Of a DNA stretch of 64,000 nt, positions 51,949 through 63,402 are shown in pieces (the stretch's first letter is position 1; the number at the start of each line of letters is the position of its first letter). This stretch comes from Armatimonadota bacterium (GTDB lineage Bacteria; Armatimonadota; HRBIN16), in NCBI GenBank assembly GCA_963677485.1, contig OY781964.1, positions 192,001 through 256,000 on the forward strand, in the 5' to 3' direction. The notes beneath the pieces are model-generated. The model was not told the DNA's origin, ran no database searches, and worked only from the letters and a program-made list of their open reading frames with translations. The translations under genes were made by a program, and so were the position numbers.

Positions 51949-53430
51949 CTAAGCCTGCGGTATCAACGCCTTCGTCAGATGCCGGTATTTCGCGGCGCGC
52001 TGCTGATAGATGCCGTGACGGCGCGTATCGGGATCAAACACCCGCCCCCTCTTCACCCACTGAGCGGCCAACGCCGCAGGGTCGGTAAAAACCCCGCTGC
52101 CCAGACCGGCCAGCATGGCTGCTCCCAGCGTGCCCGCTTCGGTGTTCTGAAGCCGCACAAAGGGGATGCCCATGATGTCAGCCTTCAACTGCATCCACAC
52201 GTCGTTGTTGGCCCCACCGCCGTTTGCTACGAACTCGGTGGTGTCCATGCCAGTGTCAAACAGCGGCTGCATGCGTTCGGCAAACCAGAAGGTCTCCCCT
52301 TCCATCACCGCTTTCATGATCTCCTCACGCGTGGAGTTCATCTTCAGTCCGACGATGGCCCCCTCGGCGTCCGGCACGAAATGCGGATATGGCGTGGTAT
52401 CAAAATACGGCAGCACGGTGAGCTCTGTCGGCTCTTCCGGCACCAGTTTGCCAAGCTCAGTGAATACATCCACCCCCTGGGCCGCCAGTTCCGGTGCGAA
52501 GGTATCACGGAACCAGCGCATCAATGCCCCACCCTGGTTATAGATGAATGACACATACAACCCCGGCAGTGTGTGGTGCTCGATGTTCAGCCCAAGCTTC
52601 ATCATCTGACCCATGTCAGGGATGCCCTGATAAGTAGGCGTGATGCACTCGTAGGTGCCGATGCCGGTCACGGAACGTCCGCCAGAGGTGATCCCGGCGC
52701 CCAGGCTGCAGCAGCACTGATCATGTCCGCCCACAACCACCTTCACGCCATGCGGCAGACCCAGTTTGTCCGCCATCTGATCGCTGACCACACCCGCCAC
52801 CGCTCCGCCAGGAAGCGGCTTCGGCAGCAGCTCGCGGGCGATCCCGCTGGCGGACAGCAGCTCATCGCTCCAGTCCTGCTTCACGATGTCAAACAGCAGC
52901 GTGCGGTTGGCGTGGGAATAGCTGGTGGTCGGTTCGCAGCCCAGCATGAACATCACCAGGTCGCCCATCAGCAGGAACTTGTCGGTCTGCTGATACACCT
53001 CAGGGTTGTTATCCTGAAGCCAGCGCATCTTGGGCATCGAATAGTTACTGCCCGGGAAGTTGGGGTTGATGCGGTAGAACGCCTCCAGCCCCATCTTCTC
53101 CACAAGCTGATTGGCATATTCCTCCCCGCGGATATCCGAGGAGAGGATGCATCGGTCGAGTATCTGACGGTCACCGCCGACAGGAGTCACCGCTTCGCCC
53201 ATCGAGCTCACGCAGAGAGCCGTGATGGGGTCTTGCTTCGACTGCGCGGCGACCTCGGAGATCACCTGCCACAGATCGGCCAAAACCACACGGCTATCCA
53301 GCTCTGCCCAGCCGGGCCTGGGAATCGCCGTGGGATACTCCCGCGACGCGGTGGCCAGGCACCGGCCTTCTAGACTGAAGGCCGATGCTTTGCAGCGTGT
53401 GGTCCCGACATCAATGCCCAGCAGGCTCAT
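51949..53430 (-). CDS. FGGY-family carbohydrate kinase (xylulokinase-like)
   Basis: LGIDVGTT, GGHDQCC, GGGAN...WMQLKAD, LGAAMLAG. Confidence 0.9.
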   Translation of the reverse strand: MSLLGIDVGTTRCKASAFSLEGRCLATASREYPTAIPRPGWAELDSRVVLADLWQVISEVAAQSKQDPITALCVSSMGEAVTPVGGDRQILDRCILSSDIRGEEYANQLVEKMGLEAFYRINPNFPGSNYSMPKMRWLQDNNPEVYQQTDKFLLMGDLVMFMLGCEPTTSYSHANRTLLFDIVKQDWSDELLSASGIARELLPKPLPGGAVAGVVSDQMADKLGLPHGVKVVVGGHDQCCCSLGAGITSGGRSVTGIGTYECITPTYQGIPDMGQMMKLGLNIEHHTLPGLYVSFIYNQGGALMRWFRDTFAPELAAQGVDVFTELGKLVPEEPTELTVLPYFDTTPYPHFVPDAEGAIVGLKMNSTREEIMKAVMEGETFWFAERMQPLFDTGMDTTEFVANGGGANNDVWMQLKADIMGIPFVRLQNTEAGTLGAAMLAGLGSGVFTDPAALAAQWVKRGRVFDPDTRRHGIYQQRAAKYRHLTKALIPQA

Positions 53431-54830
53431 ACTGTGGTCACCTCAAAACCGAGGTAGCGTGAGAGAGCCTCAAGCAACGCCACCTGCAGATGCCCCTGGG
53501 TCATGGCCACATGGTGCCGGTGCCCTTGGTATCCGATGGTGTAGAGGGTATTCTGCAGATCGGCTGTCTCCAACACGCCAGCGCATCCGAAGAAGTCCGC
53601 GGGTATCTTGTCGCCGGTAATTTTGCCTTCGCCTAGATACATTTTGACCTTGCCGTTCTCGGTCAAAAGTCCGCCATAAGTGACATCCATCGGCCTAATG
53701 CGTCCCACGTTGCATCCGTAAGAGCAGCCTGGGCCCACGGTGGTCAGCAGGATGGAGTGGTCAACCACCTCACCCTTGCTCACCATCATGCTCTGAGGAA
53801 CGGGGCCGCAATGGAACACGATGCACTTGTTCTCTTGGTCTTCGTAGTTGTTGTTCCAGTCCAACAAGGTCGCCGGTGAAGCGCTGGCTTGCTGCAGAGC
53901 GTACATCGCCACGGCGTTCGCTACGTCGGTTTCGCAGGCGGCCACGACGCCGCGGTCGTTCATTTCGCTCAACAGCACGCAGGGGCTGATACCCAGCTCC
54001 TTCTGCAGCTCGATCCAGCAGCGAACTGCGATGGCTTGCAGCTCACCTTCCGCTACGATCTGGTCAAATACGACAGCCAGACGGGCGATGTTTTCGAAGT
54101 TTTGGGCGGGCACATTCTTGAAGCCGGTGTAGTTTTTCAAAGTGGTCAGTTTCGCTGCCAGAGCGGCATCATCGGCTGCCAGTGCTTTGGTGCGGGCGAT
54201 GACTTCCGACATGTCGAAGGTCTCCACAGTCACGCCGTGGCGCTCCAATGTGAGTTCGTCGGTGCGCACCGTCTTGAATGGAGAGGTGCGGGCACCAACC
54301 ATGCCCACGCGCATCCCCTTCACGGAGCCAACCACACGGCAGACCGCTGCAAAATCGGCCAGTTGCCGCGCAAACACCTCACCCGATGGGTGCGAGGTGT
54401 GCGGCTTGAAGGTTGTAAATGCAATCTGGTGCTGGAAAAACACGTCCATGATGCTGAACTTACCGCAGAAGGAGTCACGGCGCAGCTCAGGGCTCATCTT
54501 GTCCAGTTCGTCTGGATAGGCCTGCAGCAGGATCGGCACACCGGCATTCTTCAGAGCAGCCACCGCGCCGTTCTCGTCGCCGAAGTTGGGCAGGCTGAGG
54601 ATCACGCCCTGGTACTCGCCACGGTGCGAGGCCAGCCAGGCGGCGTAGACATCGCCCTCCTGCTTGGTCTCGACAGCGCCGTAACGGGTCGCGGCTTCGT
54701 CCATGATCAGCACATTGTGCCCCTGCTTCTCCACGGCCTCGACCAGCTCCTTGCGTGCACTGGCGATCAGGCTGGCTGGAAAGAATCCACGGTTACCAAA
54801 ATACAGGGCAAAAGTCAGTTTGCGGTTCAT
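53427..54830 (-). CDS. L-fucose/L-arabinose isomerase family protein
   Basis: LPNFGDE, RRDSFCGK, ACETD, FHCGP, GHRHHV; ATGA overlap with the kinase gene. Confidence 0.85.
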   Translation of the reverse strand: MNRKLTFALYFGNRGFFPASLIASARKELVEAVEKQGHNVLIMDEAATRYGAVETKQEGDVYAAWLASHRGEYQGVILSLPNFGDENGAVAALKNAGVPILLQAYPDELDKMSPELRRDSFCGKFSIMDVFFQHQIAFTTFKPHTSHPSGEVFARQLADFAAVCRVVGSVKGMRVGMVGARTSPFKTVRTDELTLERHGVTVETFDMSEVIARTKALAADDAALAAKLTTLKNYTGFKNVPAQNFENIARLAVVFDQIVAEGELQAIAVRCWIELQKELGISPCVLLSEMNDRGVVAACETDVANAVAMYALQQASASPATLLDWNNNYEDQENKCIVFHCGPVPQSMMVSKGEVVDHSILLTTVGPGCSYGCNVGRIRPMDVTYGGLLTENGKVKMYLGEGKITGDKIPADFFGCAGVLETADLQNTLYTIGYQGHRHHVAMTQGHLQVALLEALSRYLGFEVTTV

Positions 54831-54876
54831 CGGTCATCCACCTCGTTGGGTTATAGTCGTCGGAATTCAGAGTTGT

Positions 54877-55881
54877 TCAGCGGTACCACAGGGTCAGATA
54901 GCTCTTCACTATCTTCTTCATCTCTTCGAAAACCAGTTGCTGCCGGTAGCTGGTGGTGAAGTAGCCGAGATTGGATTTACTCTGCACATCGGCATTCGCT
55001 CCCAGCAGACCTTCGGCTTGCAGGCGTTTCGCAGCTTCGGCACCCGCCACCTTGGCGGCGTTGCGGCACATATCTTCCAGCAGCGCAGGGCAGCTATCGC
55101 GCTCTAGTGCGGTCCAGATGTTCACCTTGCACACACCATCCGACATCAGGTTCGCGACTTGACTGGGTGGCACAGAGGAGCAACCGTGCAGAACCAACCG
55201 AGGACCCACTTTGCCCGAAATCTCGCGGGCCAAGTCACCGTGGTAGGTCAGCTCGGTGTTGCTGGCCCGGTGCTCGGTGCCCAGGTTCACCACCAAAAAG
55301 TCGCAGCCAGTCATCGCGTGGTAGCGTGCTGCATCTTCCGGTGAGGTCAATCGGCAGGCACCCTCGCCGCCCGCGTCAGCAACTTCATCGCAGGCGCCCT
55401 CAATCACAATCTCGTGACCATGCTGCTTTACGAACTTCGCGGTGAGTGCGGCATTTTCGTCCAGCGGCAGTGCCGAGGCATCATACATGATGGAGCTGAA
55501 CGGCACCATATCCCAGCCCAGCAGCTCGATGTCGTCATTGTATTGCACATGGTCCAGGTGCGACATCACATTCAGATGGCTGTAAGGGGAATCCTCACCC
55601 GACAGCACCTGTAGATCAGCTAGGAACAGTTTAAGCCCCATCCGCCAGTTGCGGGTGTGCGTGTAGTGCGTGGTTTGGGAGCGGTGGCTGTATAGATTCG
55701 TGATCGCCACGGTGATCGGCAGGTTGGGCTGACCAATCTCTTTTCCATACTCATCGGTTGCCGCCAGGATCGCCTCCATGGTGGTGAGATTCTCCGCACA
55801 GAATGTGGGCACGACCCAGCCTTTCGCGGCGGCATCTGCGTAGATGCCCATCACGGCATCGCGTTTGTATACTAATGGCAT
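54877..55881 (-). CDS. Class II fructose/tagatose-bisphosphate aldolase family protein
   Basis: SHLDH, IMYDAS, NLGTEH, LVLHG, KVNIWT. Confidence 0.85.
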   Translation of the reverse strand: MPLVYKRDAVMGIYADAAAKGWVVPTFCAENLTTMEAILAATDEYGKEIGQPNLPITVAITNLYSHRSQTTHYTHTRNWRMGLKLFLADLQVLSGEDSPYSHLNVMSHLDHVQYNDDIELLGWDMVPFSSIMYDASALPLDENAALTAKFVKQHGHEIVIEGACDEVADAGGEGACRLTSPEDAARYHAMTGCDFLVVNLGTEHRASNTELTYHGDLAREISGKVGPRLVLHGCSSVPPSQVANLMSDGVCKVNIWTALERDSCPALLEDMCRNAAKVAGAEAAKRLQAEGLLGANADVQSKSNLGYFTTSYRQQLVFEEMKKIVKSYLTLWYR

Positions 55882-55971
55882 ATTTCACCTCAGATTTTTT
55901 GCTTTATACCCATACTATTGCACGAATCGCTCTCAATTCGCACATCTTATTACGCAATGTGCGTGGACTTT

Positions 55972-56001
55972 CTTGCAATGCCAGTGGGGCATTGACCATA
56001 A
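55972..56001 (+). promoter_or_regulatory. Putative sigma70 promoter of the regulator
   Basis: TTGCAA-18 bp-CATAAT; the same hexamers occur upstream of the paralogue at about 62503-62531. Confidence 0.55.
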
Positions 56002-56020
56002 TGTAATACGGAGGATGCTC

Positions 56021-56878
56021 ATGTCATACCAACTGCGCGTGATCTTGGGGCCGGAGGTTCAGCGGGTATTTGATCACTTCAGTGCCTGCTTTAATATCCG
56101 CATCCTTTTCTTTGATGCAAATGGTCAGATGCTGAGCGTCGGGCAGAACCGGCCGGACTCGGTCTACTGCCGTTTGATGCGCCGGCACCTCTACGGTAAA
56201 CAGACCTGCTTCGCGCAGGATGAAGCGAAACGGCAGGAATCCGCCTCCACGCACAGTCTGGTCTGCTACCAGTGTCACGCAGGGCTCATGGAGGCGATCA
56301 TCCCGATCTACCATCAGCAGCAGTTACTCGGCACCGTGTTCATCGGCCAGTTTCGAAGCAGTGAGCAGATATCGCCGTGGGTAAAACGCGATGCCTGTGC
56401 CAGCGATGTGCTGAGCTCCGTAGAAGCCGCTTTCCATGAGCTGCCCTACGTGCCGCAAGAGCGTATCGACCACATTCTGGGTCTGTTCAACATCCTCGTG
56501 GAGTACATCATTGCTCAACGCATGATCAGCATGGGGCCAGACAACCTGGTGGGCAAGTTGGTGGCACTGATGGAGCAGCGGATATCGGGCTCTTTTACGC
56601 TGCAGCAAGCCGCCTCGGCCGTGGGAAAAAGCCCCTCCAGCGTCTCCCATCTGTTTAAAAAACACTTCGGTCAGTCCTTCAAGCAGGCTTTTTTGGAGAT
56701 GAAGTTGGCCCACGCGGACGAGATGCTGCACGGCCAGCATATGACCTCCATCACTCAGGTGGCGGAAGCGATAGGATACGATGACCCCCAATACTTCAGC
56801 CGGTTATACAAAAAGCACCGCGGCACCACGCCCAGCATGTCCAGACCAGCCGCTAAGGACGCAGAGTCGGTAGCTTAA
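56021..56878 (+). CDS. PocR ligand-binding domain AraC-family transcriptional regulator
   Basis: YCRL, YQCHAGL, IGQFR PocR motifs; [22 protein letters not shown]; GGAGG RBS. Confidence 0.9.
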   Translation: MSYQLRVILGPEVQRVFDHFSACFNIRILFFDANGQMLSVGQNRPDSVYCRLMRRHLYGKQTCFAQDEAKRQESASTHSLVCYQCHAGLMEAIIPIYHQQQLLGTVFIGQFRSSEQISPWVKRDACASDVLSSVEAAFHELPYVPQERIDHILGLFNILVEYIIAQRMISMGPDNLVGKLVALMEQRISGSFTLQQAASAVGKSPSSVSHLFKKHFGQSFKQAFLEMKLAHADEMLHGQHMTSITQVAEAIGYDDPQYFSRLYKKHRGTTPSMSRPAAKDAESVA

Positions 56879-57117: not shown

Positions 57118-58350
57118 TTAGTTCAGCCTATGGTCCGAAGACCCAACCCCCACGATCGTCCACTTGCCCTTTTTGGGGACCATTGTGTAGGTGACATATG
57201 CCACCTTGTAATGTTGGTCAGCATCATAAAACTGCTGCTTGGCATATGCGGTGTAAGCCCCATCCGACCTTTTGGCTACTTTATATGGCGCAAACATGAT
57301 CGTACCTGTGTTCCGCATCGCATCTGCAGTCATATCGCGGTAGTCATTACCGGGCATCGAATAAGCATATTTGCCGTCGATGTAGACCGCCACTCTTTCT
57401 GTTGGGGTGATATGCCGCGTAATCGGGATGCCGTTGTCATTTAGCCACGAGCTAAATATGTCGGTTAGCGCTGAGTTAAGGCTCGAATATTGGTCGTTGC
57501 GTTGGTAGCTGCTGTCATAGTATCTGTAGTCGGGTACCGGATAGTATACATAAACTGGCTGCCTCACGATGACAACCCGTTCCGCATTGATGAACAGCAG
57601 CCCATGTGTGTAGTATGGCGCGTTGAAGTGTCGGTACTTCGGCTTGCCGAATGCCCAGCCTCCGTATTTGAACCCTTTTTTGTTACCATAGCCGTCATAG
57701 TAATAATAACCAGTCTGGTAGCGTGGTTTGTGCCACTTCGTGACATACACGGGATTGACCTGTGCTCTCGTGCCCCAGCCCTGCAGAGATTCGCCACGCT
57801 TTGCGCGCTGGTAAGCGGCCATTCCAGACTTGCTGGTAGGTCGTGATTGCTTGCCTGGTCGACTGAGCACGGCATTACCAGTAGCCTTCATGTCCGGGCG
57901 GCCTTGCTGATGAACGCTGGTCTTACCAGACGGCTTCGCAATATTCGTTCGGCCCTTCTGCTGGACACTAGTCTTGCCAGACGACTTCGCAGTATTCTTG
58001 CGGCCTTGTTGGATGCTCGTCTTGCTGGACGATTTCGCAGTATTCCTGCGGCCTTGTTGGACGCTCGTCTTGCCAGACGACTTCGCGGTACTCCGGCGGT
58101 CTTGCTGGACACTCGTCTTGCCAGATGACTTCGCAGTATTCCTGCGGCCTTGCTGGACACTCGTCTTGCCAGATGATTTCGCGGTATTCCGGCGGTCTTG
58201 CTGGACGCTGGTTTTGCCAGACGACTTCGCATCGTCTCCGCCCGATTTGTCTCCACGAGCCATACCCGTCGCTACAACGAACAACACACACATAGAAACT
58301 GCGAACGCAGTCACTAGCAGTGATATCTTCGATTTCATTGTCTTAGGCAT
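57118..58350 (-). CDS. Secreted hypothetical protein with basic 16-aa tandem repeats, a Tyr-rich linker and a C-terminal NTF2-like domain
   Basis: Signal peptide; AKSSGKTSVQQxRRNT repeats; C-terminal YTMVPKKGKWTIVGV (the fold is inferred). Confidence 0.72.
   Translation of the reverse strand: MPKTMKSKISLLVTAFAVSMCVLFVVATGMARGDKSGGDDAKSSGKTSVQQDRRNTAKSSGKTSVQQGRRNTAKSSGKTSVQQDRRSTAKSSGKTSVQQGRRNTAKSSSKTSIQQGRKNTAKSSGKTSVQQKGRTNIAKPSGKTSVHQQGRPDMKATGNAVLSRPGKQSRPTSKSGMAAYQRAKRGESLQGWGTRAQVNPVYVTKWHKPRYQTGYYYYDGYGNKKGFKYGGWAFGKPKYRHFNAPYYTHGLLFINAERVVIVRQPVYVYYPVPDYRYYDSSYQRNDQYSSLNSALTDIFSSWLNDNGIPITRHITPTERVAVYIDGKYAYSMPGNDYRDMTADAMRNTGTIMFAPYKVAKRSDGAYTAYAKQQFYDADQHYKVAYVTYTMVPKKGKWTIVGVGSSDHRLN
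57900..58229 (-). repeat. 48-bp coding tandem repeat, about 7 units
   Basis: GA(C/T)TTCGC recurs with a 48-bp period and encodes AKSSGKTSVQQ(D/G)RRNT. Confidence 0.9.
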
Positions 58351-59327: not shown

Positions 59328-61538
59328 CTAAACCACCTGTTGGGTACGGTTGATGATCATGTCCTGCCACTGTTTATTCAACGTGGCAAAGCGTGCGCTC
59401 CATCCAGCAACACGCACGGACAGGTTGGGATACTTCTCAGGATGCTTTTGGGCGTCCATCAACACCACGGAGTCGACCACATCGATATGCAGGAAACAAC
59501 CACCCATCTTCATGAAGCCCTTTAACAAGCCGACCATGGTTTGGATGCCCTTGTCGCCTTTCACCGAAGATGGCATGACCTTCAGCTCAAACGCACCGAT
59601 ACCGGGCAGGTTCGTGAAGTCCATCTTGCAATAGCTGCACAACGCCGCCGTGGGGCCGTATTTGTCGCTGCCAGGAGACGGCGAGAAGTTGGTTGCCAAA
59701 ATGTCGCCAGCATGGTGACCATCGGCAGTGGCCTTGCGGACAGGGCTCCACTCCAGTTCACGACCAAAAGTGCTGATACCCGCTGGACGGAACACACCTT
59801 TACGGAATTTCGTTTCAGCCACCAACGTGGTAAAGCTGTTGTAAACACGCTCTGCCATGGCGTCAGCCTGGTCGTTGTCATTCCCGTAGGTAGGCACTCG
59901 GCTGGCCAGCAGCCGTCTGAGGCTCTCGTTATCTCGCCAGTCGCTGCGGATGGCCGTTACCAAGTCGTCCCAGCTCACCAGTTTGGTGTCGAAAACCGCC
60001 TGTTTGATCGCCATCAGGCTGTTGGCGGTATCCGCCATTCCGCCGGCATGGCAGGCTAACTGGTAGTATTTCGCCCCGCGGTCGTTATAGTCGGCTGCGT
60101 TCTCGATACAACCTTCCACGAACAGCGAAGGAACCGTAGCGGGACCGCCTCCCACCATCCAGCCATCTGCGATCTCGTGATACCATTTCACGTGGGTGGC
60201 CAGACGCTGTTCAAACGCGGTATATAGTTGATCGAAGTCAGCATATTTCGGTATGGGGTTGGAAGCACTCTGCACGCCCATCACCTCTTGGAGTAGCTGC
60301 AAGGTGTCAAACGGCATATAGGTAAACGCCGTTTTACCAGGAACCAGCACTTCCCAGCATCCGTCATTGGTGAAGTTGCGCGCCTCTTCCAAGGGATATC
60401 CCAACTTCGTCATCGCCTCAATGACCACAGGCTCATTGTAGGTGGCGATAATACCTCCACCCAGCCGCTGAACCTCTGCGATGCGCTTCAGCAACAGCTC
60501 GGGTGATTTTGGGCTCAGACGCACTGCAATTGGGAAGTCACTCATGCGAAGCTCTTCCACCACATCCAGCACGAGGTATGTGACTGGATTGGTGACCTCA
60601 ACACCCTTCTCGTCGATCCCGCCGAGTATGATGTTCTGGTAGAACTGCGCATCGCCGCTGCCAGGCCCCACTGGTTTTGTCCACTCCGCGCCCATTAGCC
60701 AGAAGTGCGCCACCAGCTCGCGGGCCTCGTTCAGGCTGATCTTGCCTGCAGCGAGGTCTTTGGCAAGCAGCGGTCCCAGCATCTTGTCGATGCGTCCGAT
60801 ACCGCTCCAGTTGCCGCACAGCCGGGTCCACGCCCAGGTCAGATGCAATGCCAGCACGCCCTCAAAGAAGGTGGTGGGTGCATGTTCCGGCACCCGCTTC
60901 ATGGCTTCCGCGATCTGGGTGGCCCCTTTGGATGCTGCCAACTCCATATTGCGTTTGTGCCATGCACCATATGCATCGAGACAGATGCGCATTGACTCTA
61001 AATAGTCGCGTTGTTTTGTGCTAAGATTGGTATCTTTGAGGCGCGACATGAGTTTCGCTCGTACGCCGCCCATGCCAGTCCGTAGTGCCTGTTCGTAACC
61101 GAATGTCGTATGGCTCACACTCGACTGGTTGTATAGCGGAACTTGATGCCCGGCAGCTTCGATCACGGTGGCACTGCCGATGAGTCTCATACCCGGTTCA
61201 AATCGCAGCGGAGCATTCTCTGAGATCAGCCGTACGCTCTGGGCATACTTCATATACTCGCTCATGCCCGTGACATCGACTTTGTCTTCCAGCTTAAAGG
61301 GAAGCGATACCATCTCACGCCCCCACTCACCCATCACCGCTTTGGTGGCGAGGCAGATGGTGGCATCACACAGGCGCATCTTGTGGGGTAGAGTGCAGAC
61401 TTGGTTGTTGTTATCAGCCAGACTTGGTGGTGTTATTTTGGCCGTAGAGCTCTCTTTAGCTGAAGTCATTTGTGCGGCACCGATCATACCAGCTCCGATA
61501 GCGGTTGCACCAGATAATAGAAACTTGCGTCGATCCAT
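59328..61538 (-). CDS. Glycyl radical enzyme (pyruvate formate-lyase family) with a Tat-like signal peptide
   Basis: GRIDKML, NDGCWE Cys loop, HPEKYPNLSVRVAGWS Gly loop; N-terminus MDRRKFLLSG; GGGAGG RBS. Confidence 0.9.
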   Translation of the reverse strand: MDRRKFLLSGATAIGAGMIGAAQMTSAKESSTAKITPPSLADNNNQVCTLPHKMRLCDATICLATKAVMGEWGREMVSLPFKLEDKVDVTGMSEYMKYAQSVRLISENAPLRFEPGMRLIGSATVIEAAGHQVPLYNQSSVSHTTFGYEQALRTGMGGVRAKLMSRLKDTNLSTKQRDYLESMRICLDAYGAWHKRNMELAASKGATQIAEAMKRVPEHAPTTFFEGVLALHLTWAWTRLCGNWSGIGRIDKMLGPLLAKDLAAGKISLNEARELVAHFWLMGAEWTKPVGPGSGDAQFYQNIILGGIDEKGVEVTNPVTYLVLDVVEELRMSDFPIAVRLSPKSPELLLKRIAEVQRLGGGIIATYNEPVVIEAMTKLGYPLEEARNFTNDGCWEVLVPGKTAFTYMPFDTLQLLQEVMGVQSASNPIPKYADFDQLYTAFEQRLATHVKWYHEIADGWMVGGGPATVPSLFVEGCIENAADYNDRGAKYYQLACHAGGMADTANSLMAIKQAVFDTKLVSWDDLVTAIRSDWRDNESLRRLLASRVPTYGNDNDQADAMAERVYNSFTTLVAETKFRKGVFRPAGISTFGRELEWSPVRKATADGHHAGDILATNFSPSPGSDKYGPTAALCSYCKMDFTNLPGIGAFELKVMPSSVKGDKGIQTMVGLLKGFMKMGGCFLHIDVVDSVVLMDAQKHPEKYPNLSVRVAGWSARFATLNKQWQDMIINRTQQVV

Positions 61539-61619
61539 ATAAGCCTCCCATCATTGAATAGTAAGGGTGTAGTATCACTGGCTCCACATGGGCATACCAT
61601 GTGGAGCCATGTGAACAGG

Positions 61620-62396
61620 CTAGTTGGTGCAGCCTGGCATCACCCAGCCGTCTGGTCGTGCTCCGAAATTCCAAGCTTCCCAGTTACAGGTCAGTGCAGA
61701 CATCTTCTTGTGCCCTGCATGGCCATCGATGTATGAGATGTTGATACCCTCAGTGTGGCGATAGCTCACAATTCCGTTATTCAATCCAATCAGGGTCAGC
61801 TTACCGTCTGTTTTGGAGACAGCATTCCAGCCGTCCCAAGTGCTGCAAAAGTGTGTGTAGAATGTGTCGCTACCTTCAAGCACAGCGATTGTTTGAGTGG
61901 GACTATCAGCGTCATTCTCGCTGACAGGATAGCTGTATTTGCCATTGTATGATGCGTTGGTGCCCTCAGGCCAATGCCAGCCTGGGGTTTCATTCATGGC
62001 GTATGTGGTAGTCATCAAGGAGCCAGGGTAACCGCCAAGATTGGCGATGTACCAATCCACTATCCATTGGGTTTTCGATCTGTCTCTCACTGACGGACAA
62101 ACAAAGATCGATCGTGATTTGGTGTATGGCAGTATTTTGTTACCCCAACTCACGTTATCAATCTTGCCGTCACCTGTGACATCCTGTGACCAATCGTACA
62201 CGCTGACGCAGCTGCCATCGCAATCATCGGCGTAAAGTTTCATAGCCAAACCAATCTGTTTCATGTTGCTTAAACATGCACTCTGTTTGGCCTTCTCACG
62301 TGCTTGAGCGAATACAGGGAATAAGATGGCGGCCAAGATCGCGATGATCGCGATCACCACCAGCAGTTCAATTAGTGTGAACCCGTTGCGCTTCAT
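61620..62396 (-). CDS. Prepilin-type N-terminal cleavage/methylation protein (DUF1559, H-X9-DG)
   Basis: [36 protein letters not shown]...CLSNMKQIG; [14 protein letters not shown]; CAGGAG RBS. Confidence 0.93.
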
Positions 62397-62553
62397 TGAT
62401 ATCTCCTGTTGCCGGTATATAGGAAGTAGACCAGCGTATATAATACATTTGCCCCATATAAAGACAAATTGACATAAACAAACTGTGCTAACCATGGAGT
62501 TTCTTGCAAGGATGCAAGGTATTACGCATAATATAAAGCAGGAGATTTCACAA

Positions 62554-63402
62554 ATGCCATATAATTTGCGAGTCATTCTGGGGCCTGAGGTTCAAAGTAT
62601 CTTTGACAATTTCAGTGCCTGCTTTAACATCCGAATCCAGTTTTTCGATTACACTGGGCAGATTCTCAGCGTCGGCCAGAACCGTCCTGAAGAGGTTTAT
62701 TGCCGACTAGTACAGCGGCAACTCTACGGCAAACAGGCATGCACTGATCAAGTGCATACAGCATGTGCCAAAGCCATCAACACGCGCTCGCTTGTCTGTT
62801 ACAAATGCCACGCCGGGTTGGCAGAGGCGATCATCCCGATTTTTCACAACGACCAGTTACTAGGTAAAGTGTTTATCGGTCAGTTCCGCAGTATCGAAAA
62901 GATTCCCGCCAAGGTGCTTGCTGATGCGGAAGAGCGTGGTCTGGGTAGTTCGTTACAGGTCGCTTTTGACGAGTTGCCATATGTACCGCAAGAACGCATG
63001 GACCACATTCTTGGAATACTCAGTACTCTCGTGGGTTACATCATCACACAGCGCATGGTCAGTTTTGAACTCGACAGCGTCGTGCAACAGCTGGTCAACC
63101 TGTTGGATGAGAACATTGCTAGCTCACTGACTCTTCAAGATGCCGCCGAAGCGGTGGGCAAAAGCCCCTCCAGCGTATCTCATCTGTTCCGCAAGCAGTT
63201 TGGGCAGTCGTTCAAGCAGGCGTTCCTGAGCTTCAAGTTGGCCCATGCCGATGTGTTGTTAAAGACCCAATCTGAGATGACGATTAAGCAAATTGCCGAA
63301 GCAGTTGGCTACGATGACCCACTGTATTTCAGTCGGTTGTATAAGAAATACCGCGGGATCACCCCCAGTGCCATTCGGACAGAGGAAGCACCCATCCTTT
63401 AA
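62554..63402 (+). CDS. PocR ligand-binding domain AraC-family transcriptional regulator (paralogue)
   Basis: Same motifs as 56021-56878; start MPYNLRV after AGGAG. Confidence 0.9.

Follow-up and report, generated by a model that had tools for sequence, protein, structure and literature searches.

The closest described relatives of the enzyme reported here are dehydratases of the glycyl radical enzyme (GRE) superfamily that act on glycerol and propanediol, and these are cytoplasmic or microcompartment-bound. The radical of a GRE is destroyed by oxygen, and its activase requires S-adenosylmethionine (SAM) and a low-potential reductant. To our knowledge, GREs have been treated as strictly intracellular. 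Other proteins undergo a modification that can take place only in the cytoplasm and are exported afterwards, as is the case for the cofactor enzymes carried by the machinery for twin-arginine translocation (Tat) and for exported sulfatases, which the radical-SAM enzyme anSME matures in the cytoplasm. Here we describe a GRE gene whose product carries a predicted Tat signal peptide. The gene lies in a stretch of 64,000 nucleotides from an Armatimonadota bacterium (GenBank assembly GCA_963677485.1, contig OY781964.1, positions 192,001 to 256,000; C1:192001-256000 in the genome coordinates used below), and this whole stretch is referred to as the window. Full-text literature searches (subscription journals not covered) returned no report of an exported or Tat-signal-bearing GRE in the texts they reached, and in the accessible part of PMC9324843 GREs are named in the reference list only.

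The window protein matches the Pfam families PFL-like (PF02901, E = 1.1e-91) and Gly_radical (PF01228, E = 3.8e-21). The PFL-like match begins at profile position 147, leaving ~145 N-terminal profile positions absent, and the usual N-terminal part of a GRE is therefore shortened. The protein falls below the cut-offs of all NCBIfam GRE equivalog models (HypD, CutC, sulfopropanediol dehydratase, PFL, and indoleacetate and HPA decarboxylases); HypD is the best of these, with 299.9 bits against a cut-off of 1100, and the subfamily model TIGR01774 gives 309.3 against 678.2. Hydroxyproline, propanediol and glycerol dehydratases are the best sequence matches among solved structures, with E values from 1e-67 to 1e-65. 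An AlphaFold2 model computed from a 29-sequence alignment has a mean predicted local distance difference test (pLDDT) score of 88.3, and its only disorder is in residues 1-49, which comprise the leader and a linker. A Foldseek search with this model returned choline lyase as well as the dehydratases of glycerol, propanediol and hydroxyproline, with TM scores of 0.82-0.83 and identities of 21-24%; the TM score to 1r8w is 0.83.

The catalytic loops lead to the same assignment. A first-pass annotation of the window had reported intact Cys and Gly loops, DGCWE and RVAGWS, and both were found, at residues 392-396 and 709-714. The DGCWE loop, including G393-C394-W395-E396, is kept in all 80 rows of the family alignment (29 with a twin-arginine leader, 11 with a variant leader and 40 leaderless), as are R709 and G712 of the glycine loop, in which the RVxG[FWY] radical-glycine motif of the superfamily is present as RVAGWS. 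The Cys loop holds a single Cys, with a Glu two residues further on, instead of the Cys-Cys pair of PFL, and the invariant C394 aligns with the Cys loop of HypD (6vxc), GCVE. This alignment, together with glycerol and propanediol dehydratases as the best folds, upholds the earlier description of the loop as eliminase-like. The window protein is a true GRE of an uncharacterised eliminase-type subfamily and has no characterised equivalog.

The wider family comprises 1707 proteins at E <= 1e-20 among 8000 candidates examined, and a relative is encoded in 576 of the 598 candidate stretches taken from species-representative genomes. After clustering at 50% identity, about 20 representatives align over their full length at >=490 bits; beyond these, shorter fragments aside, scores fall to ~330 bits and 35% identity. 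One close relative (P0270) is itself named as a protein of an Armatimonadota metagenome-assembled genome (MAG), and the source genome holds nine PFL-like genes. Some members are enlarged. Forms of ~950-1050 aa, mostly from Hydrogenedentota (P0069, P0070, P0082, L083, L089, L091, L092, L095, L096 and L100), carry an inserted Laminin_G_3 domain, a concanavalin-like lectin/glucanase fold, after approximately residue 176 of the window protein. Three Lentisphaerota forms of ~870 aa (L060, L066 and L067) carry a different insert, ~150 aa long and close to the N-terminus, which Pfam does not match.

The feature that sets the window protein apart is its N-terminus. The first-pass annotation had placed the leader MDRRKFLLSGATAIGAGMIGAAQMTSA directly behind a GGGAGG ribosome-binding site, and the first 27 residues of the translated gene are identical to that string. 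Read by eye, the leader consists of an n-region, MDRRKF, a h-region rich in Gly, Ala and Thr, LLSGATAIGAGMIGAA, and the residues T-S-A, after which cleavage is likely; the corresponding residues of close relatives are S-M-A, A-V-A or A-Q-A. When set against the Tat consensus, S/T-R-R-x-F-L-K (as given in the accessible text of PMC3383694), D-R-R-K-F-L-L matches at RR, F and L and differs at the first and last positions. A longer reading of the gene is impossible, because an in-frame stop codon lies four codons before the ATG. A start codon downstream of the RR motif was considered and rejected: GGGAGG stands 5 nt before the first ATG, and no Shine-Dalgarno sequence precedes the ATG at residue 54.

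To describe the leader in other proteins, we used a rule that demands RR, any residue, a hydrophobic pair and then at least 12 uncharged residues. The rule is matched by 40 of 3519 greedily called open reading frames (ORFs) of the source genome, many of which look Sec-like by eye. The MDRRKFLLSGATAIG leader is shared by a paralogue at C1:2851688 (85% identity), and the same leader type is present in L021-L023. Of the 120 top-ranking database homologues (47-94% identity), the rule accepts 79 and fails 41. Inspection of the failures by eye showed that two have the motif with a charge that breaks the h-region (P0010 and P0080), that four apparently begin inside the h-region (P0065, P0075, P0085 and P0106) and that one is truncated (P0005). 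The motif of the homologues is mostly [SND]RR[DE]F[LIV]K. Some homologues carry the NCBI name 'twin-arginine translocation signal domain-containing protein', and of eight that were compared with the Pfam TAT_signal model (PF10518), two score above the cut-off and two below it. As judged by sequence, the window leader is not a chance feature, because the rule selects so few ORFs of the genome and because the leader recurs in the paralogue and in homologues down to ~50% identity.

The leader was also classified in genomic context. From the 80 best genomic loci, three (L036, L058 and L077) were excluded because their GRE ORF is shorter than 650 aa, which leaves 77 loci. Of these, 27 encode an RR leader, 11, all from Bacteroidota, encode a variant leader of the form SR[KASG][DE]FLK, and 39 encode none, so that 38 of 77 are leader-bearing. 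The first-pass annotation had named lack of conservation as one outcome that would speak against its reading, and instead the leader is kept in close as well as distant homologues. In the variant leaders (SRKEFLK, SRADFLK, SRSEFLK and SRGEFLK; L062, L064, L071, L072, L076, L078, L079, L084, L086, L087 and L098), the second Arg is replaced and the rest of the Tat consensus is kept; some of them have a Cys inside the h-region, a possible lipobox.

A tree of the family rows was calculated with FastTree after removal of the leader columns and was rooted with four distant paralogues from the source genome. All 40 leader-bearing rows group with nine leaderless ones in a single clade of 49 rows (local support 99%), and the basal groups, from Phycisphaerae, Victivallales, Chloroflexota and Kiritimatiellia, are leaderless. 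At least six changes of leader state are needed. This pattern fits a single gain of the leader followed by several losses, with a root that rests on long branches. The window protein clusters with four other RR rows, and a leaderless paralogue from its own genome is their sister with 100% support. The leaderless gene (C1:2372187-2373557; locus L112, 7735-9894, minus strand) has polysaccharide O-acetyltransferase genes of MBOAT- and AlgX-like type as neighbours. The organism thus has one enzyme in a predicted cytoplasmic version and in predicted exported versions.

The distribution of activases bears on where the radical would be formed. None of the genome's 27 PF04055 or 11 TIGR02494 matches falls in C1:192001-256000, in agreement with the earlier remark that the window holds no radical-SAM gene. 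The genome-wide search for an activase that had been proposed with that remark gave a single full GRE activase, at C1:5192198-5193010 (TIGR02494, 353 bits against a cut-off of 174), which adjoins a canonical 792-aa GRE ~4.9 Mb from the window. A second, activase-like fragment, covering profile positions 150-240 and broken by a TGA codon, lies at C1:5196478-5196750. In the sampled loci, an ORF was counted as an activase if it matched the source genome's own activase with phmmer at E < 1e-20. By this measure, an activase is present in 15 of the 27 loci with an RR leader, in 10 of the 11 with a variant leader and in 5 of the 39 leaderless loci, that is, in 25 of 38 leader-bearing loci and 30 of 77 overall (31 of 80 before exclusions), mostly directly downstream of the GRE gene on the same strand. 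The earlier statement that the GRE has no neighbouring activase thus holds for the window, as a peculiarity of this lineage and not as a trait of the family.

These activases show no sign of being exported themselves. All 31 locus activase ORFs begin at the region of a conserved G-x-I-F-D-I-Q-R-F motif, and none satisfies the leader rule; two unlinked activases, from Alistipes hominis and from a Hydrogenedentota MAG, also have no signal peptide. All 37 genomes with a leader-bearing GRE contain an activase match at E <= 1e-20, in 36 of them above the family cut-off. Moreover, in 15 of the 37 the leader-bearing enzyme is the sole PFL-like match within the assembled DNA, and in such genomes the activase therefore has no client other than the enzyme with the export signal. 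In one of the 15 (G027), the activase match is a fragment at a contig end. The first-pass annotation had suggested an enzyme that is activated and then exported; these observations add support to that order of events, with export itself a prediction.

The source genome has the genes that such export would need, with one TatC match and two TatA/B matches, and TatC is present in four of five Bacteroidales genomes with variant leaders, the fifth being a 1.7-Mb MAG. No gene for a signal-binding chaperone was found beside the GRE gene. Eight other ORFs of the source genome have canonical-looking leaders, two of which closely resemble that of the GRE. Their products are an alpha-galactosidase-like protein (NPCBM and Melibiase), one CBM4_9 and one GH63-like protein, an amidohydrolase, a pair of sulfatases, a 4Fe-4S ferredoxin and a protein to which Pfam assigns no family, and are typical exported glycan-degrading or cofactor proteins. 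Targeting of the GRE N-terminus to a bacterial microcompartment (BMC) was considered and rejected, as no BMC shell gene (PF00936) was found in the 97%-complete, single-contig genome.

We favour the reading, which we consider probable, that activation takes place in the cytoplasm, that Tat exports the enzyme in folded form and that its periplasmic substrate is a small molecule derived from sugar. According to this reading, the GRE would fold in the cytoplasm, where the leaderless activase (C1:5192198-5193010), with SAM and a reduced iron-sulfur cluster, would set the radical on Gly712. The DRRKFLL leader would then be recognised, and the folded, radical-bearing enzyme would cross the membrane through TatA/TatC, with cleavage predicted after T-S-A at residue 27. 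In an anoxic periplasm, Cys394 would take over the radical and abstract a hydrogen atom next to a hydroxyl group, and Glu396 could act as the base while a neighbouring leaving group is lost in a radical 1,2-elimination. Return of the radical to Gly712 would allow many turnovers per activation.

Several observations weigh against this reading, chief among them that one paralogue and many relatives are leaderless and that the window leader lacks a profile match. The paralogue at C1:2372187 (719 aa; cluster P0006/P0007, 69-71% identity) has no leader, nor have 39 of the 77 loci, so that cytoplasmic function is clearly possible for the enzyme. The window leader has L at the K position of the consensus; it has no match to PF10518, the NCBIfam models including TIGR01409 give none when the 60-residue N-terminus is scanned, and the Rieske Tat-signal family PF10399 gives just a weak one (E = 0.11). 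A single intact activase would have to serve nine GRE paralogues in the source genome, and a radical quenched outside could not be renewed by a cytoplasmic activase. MAGs are incomplete, so that 'only GRE' holds just for assembled DNA, and the gene neighbourhoods give no consistent substrate clue. Finally, we know of no Tat-exported glycyl radical protein.

These points can be taken to mean that the leader is unused for export, or exports just a minor fraction, and that the enzyme is cytoplasmic, with the extension a relic or a device for membrane association or regulation. A family that works without the leader in half of its loci, repeated loss within the leader-bearing clade itself (nine leaderless rows among 49, with the at least six changes counted on the tree) and a window leader that escapes both the Pfam and the NCBIfam Tat models all speak for this, and a cytoplasmic activase most simply fits a cytoplasmic enzyme. 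A useless extension is nevertheless unlikely, because RR, the uncharged h-region and the small residues before the likely cut are kept at ~50% identity and in several phyla while the rest of the leader diverges. The other leader-bearing proteins of the genome are typical exported enzymes, and the Tat genes are present. We therefore regard a largely cytoplasmic enzyme as unlikely. It is less probable still that the protein is exported without its radical, to be activated outside by an exported or hitchhiking activase or to serve in a role that does not depend on the radical. Neither SAM nor the low-potential reductant that activation needs is expected in the periplasm, none of the 31 family-adjacent activases has a leader, and a radical-free role is at odds with the invariance of Gly712 and Cys394 in all 40 leader-bearing rows. 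What speaks for activation outside is that Tat hitchhiking of leaderless partners is known for other enzymes, as described in the available portion of PMC4273604.

Export by Sec or as a lipoprotein, in which the enzyme would cross the membrane unfolded and fold outside, is suggested by the single Arg of the Bacteroidales SR[KASG][DE]FLK leaders and by the h-region Cys in some of them. The window protein and the 27 RR loci, by contrast, keep RR followed by F/L and an h-region that, by eye, is weakly hydrophobic, and even the variant leaders retain the remaining Tat consensus; TatC is present in four of the five such genomes checked. Unfolded passage cannot carry a pre-formed radical, yet a leaderless activase is present in 10 of the 11 variant-leader loci, and we consider this route very improbable. 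We give least credence to a misplaced start codon, with the leader untranslated, or to an N-terminus that is a microcompartment-targeting peptide. Further in-frame ATGs do occur at residues 18, 24 and 54, and some homologues begin just before a conserved RLSD motif, but none of these ATGs has a ribosome site comparable to that of the first, and in-frame conservation of the leader is seen both among paralogues and between phyla. The lack of BMC shell genes counts against a microcompartment peptide.

The features of the locus are collected in Table 1. The annotation of a co-oriented DUF1559 prepilin-like gene and of a divergent PocR-AraC regulator was confirmed with Pfam. The longest ORF of the DUF1559 gene reaches 62576, which places its first codon 60 codons ahead of the prepilin motif and makes it overlap with the regulator ORF on the opposite strand; the likely start of the gene is the Met at 62396. 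The source genome has 12 DUF1559 matches, two of which adjoin GRE genes; the other one of these (C1:5195699-5196061) lies beside the canonical GRE-activase cluster (C1:5189897-5196750). With a pseudopilin-like gene immediately upstream of the predicted Tat cargo, it is conceivable that the protein could be passed on by type II secretion. The terminator-like hairpin behind the GRE gene is weak evidence, as the consensus scan that found it yields no more sites than in shuffled sequence.

Table 1. Positions, strands and supporting evidence for features of the GRE locus and the adjacent sugar operon, in window coordinates.
Feature	Position	Strand	Evidence or remark
GRE gene, 736 aa including leader	59328..61538	minus	ORF; Pfam PFL-like and Gly_radical; AlphaFold2 model; Foldseek
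GGGAGG ribosome-binding site, 5 nt before the GRE ATG	61544..61549	minus	Sequence reading
Predicted Tat signal peptide, residues 1-27 of the GRE	61458..61538	minus	Sequence and homologue leaders
Cys loop D392-G-C394-W-E396, with the thiyl-radical Cys and general-base Glu of eliminase-type GREs	60351..60365	minus	Invariant columns
Glycyl radical loop R709-V-A-G712-W-S, residues 709-714	59397..59414	minus	Pfam Gly_radical; conservation
Terminator-like hairpin followed by a T run, ~54 nt past the GRE stop codon	59260..59274	minus	Consensus scan, weak
Prepilin-like DUF1559 gene, co-oriented with the GRE gene and 81 nt upstream of it	61620..62396	minus	Pfam N_methyl and SBP_bac_10/DUF1559
Divergent PocR-sensor/AraC-HTH regulator	62485..63402	plus	Pfam PocR 2.4e-27; HTH_AraC/HTH_18
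Second PocR-AraC regulator	55844-56878	plus	Divergent from the sugar operon
Class II aldolase, sugar operon	54877-55881	minus	
Fucose-isomerase C-terminal-domain protein, sugar operon	53427-54830	minus	
FGGY sugar kinase, sugar operon	51949-53430	minus	

Beyond these genes, the window is rich in others related to carbohydrates, among them genes for GH123, GH42-like and CBM4_9 proteins and for a protein of 2606 aa with a GH94 domain. The second regulator and its sugar operon (51949-56878) form a paralogous regulatory unit next to that of the GRE. Between the two units, an ORF of 410 aa on the minus strand (57118-58350) has an N-terminal hydrophobic segment and approximately eight tandem copies of a repeat of ~18 residues (AKSSGKTSVQQ.RRNT), with no Pfam family. 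The region 27045-49238, also on the minus strand, holds a run of very large genes: the 2606-aa protein combines a GH94 supersandwich domain with GH94 catalytic and glucoamylase-like domains, and three other genes encode DUF11/SdrD-B repeat proteins of 835, 1982 and 1351 aa.

Neighbouring genes were surveyed in the 80 loci, in which 636 neighbouring ORFs were clustered. Besides the activase, the only neighbours to recur are AraC-type regulators (19 loci, mostly divergent and upstream), sulfatases (6), DUF1559 genes (5) and beta-lactamase-fold proteins (5). Pfam assignments for 56 neighbours from 10 loci are mixed, with GH97, amylase/SusE, rhamnosidase, Fe-ADH, IclR and one hybrid two-component regulator, and no shared transporter or polysaccharide utilization locus emerged from these 56. 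The contexts of the two close paralogues in the source genome are not conserved. Context and the Laminin_G_3 forms point to carbohydrate-related chemistry and to no named substrate. Because the active sites of GREs are buried and accept small molecules, a small glycan-derived molecule is favoured over a polymer. The enzyme probably acts on a small, hydroxylated product of glycan breakdown, for example a sugar, a deoxy-sugar or a sulfated sugar; the proposal of sugars comes from context.

The leader-bearing clade spans Armatimonadota, Planctomycetota, Hydrogenedentota and Bacteroidota, the last including the cultured gut species Alistipes hominis. Tentatively, and with rather more doubt than attaches to export of the window enzyme, we propose for the clade as a whole that a glycyl radical made in the cytoplasm passes through Tat intact and that, in at least four phyla, anaerobes which degrade glycans use it outside the cytoplasm for radical C-O (or C-S) elimination on substrates derived from sugars. 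Each enzyme molecule would be active until its radical is lost, and the Laminin_G_3 forms might dock on polysaccharide. If this is true, a protein radical can survive membrane transport and the Tat pathway gains a new class of cargo. It would also reveal an unrecognised extracytoplasmic anaerobic chemistry for the breakdown of sugars and glycans, an oxygen-free counterpart to secreted oxidative enzymes. The question is directly testable, because a cultured host and two-gene GRE-activase units are available.

The known systems closest in fold are the B12-independent glycerol dehydratase of C. butyricum (1r8w) and the 1,2-propanediol dehydratase of R. inulinivorans (5i2g; 9rco/9rcp), which have the same ten-stranded barrel (TM 0.81-0.83) and have in common with the window GRE the single-Cys G-C-x-E loop, the C-terminal RVxG loop and dependence on a TIGR02494-type activase. 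The window GRE differs from them in sequence (24% identity), in the absence of the ~145 N-terminal profile positions, in its Tat-type leader and in the Trp that follows both the Cys and the Gly (DGCWE and RVAGWS). HypD, the trans-4-hydroxy-L-proline dehydratase of C. difficile (6vxc), is the best sequence match among solved structures (E = 1.7e-67), and its Cys and Gly loops align with those of the window protein; it has no leader, and the window protein, at 299.9 bits where 1100 are required, is not HypD. YbiW and PflD, dehydratases of 1,5-anhydroglucitol-6-phosphate and 1,5-anhydromannitol-6-phosphate (8id7 and 8id0), belong to the same class and act on sugar-derived substrates (TM 0.82-0.83), but they share 21% identity with the window GRE, have no leader and, according to the titles of their Protein Data Bank entries, use substrates that are phosphorylated and hence cytoplasmic. 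Compared with the Tat-exported cofactor enzymes and the sulfatases matured by anSME, the cargo here would carry a protein radical in place of a metal cofactor or a formylglycine. The new element is a predicted export signal on an eliminase-type GRE that is otherwise typical of its superfamily.

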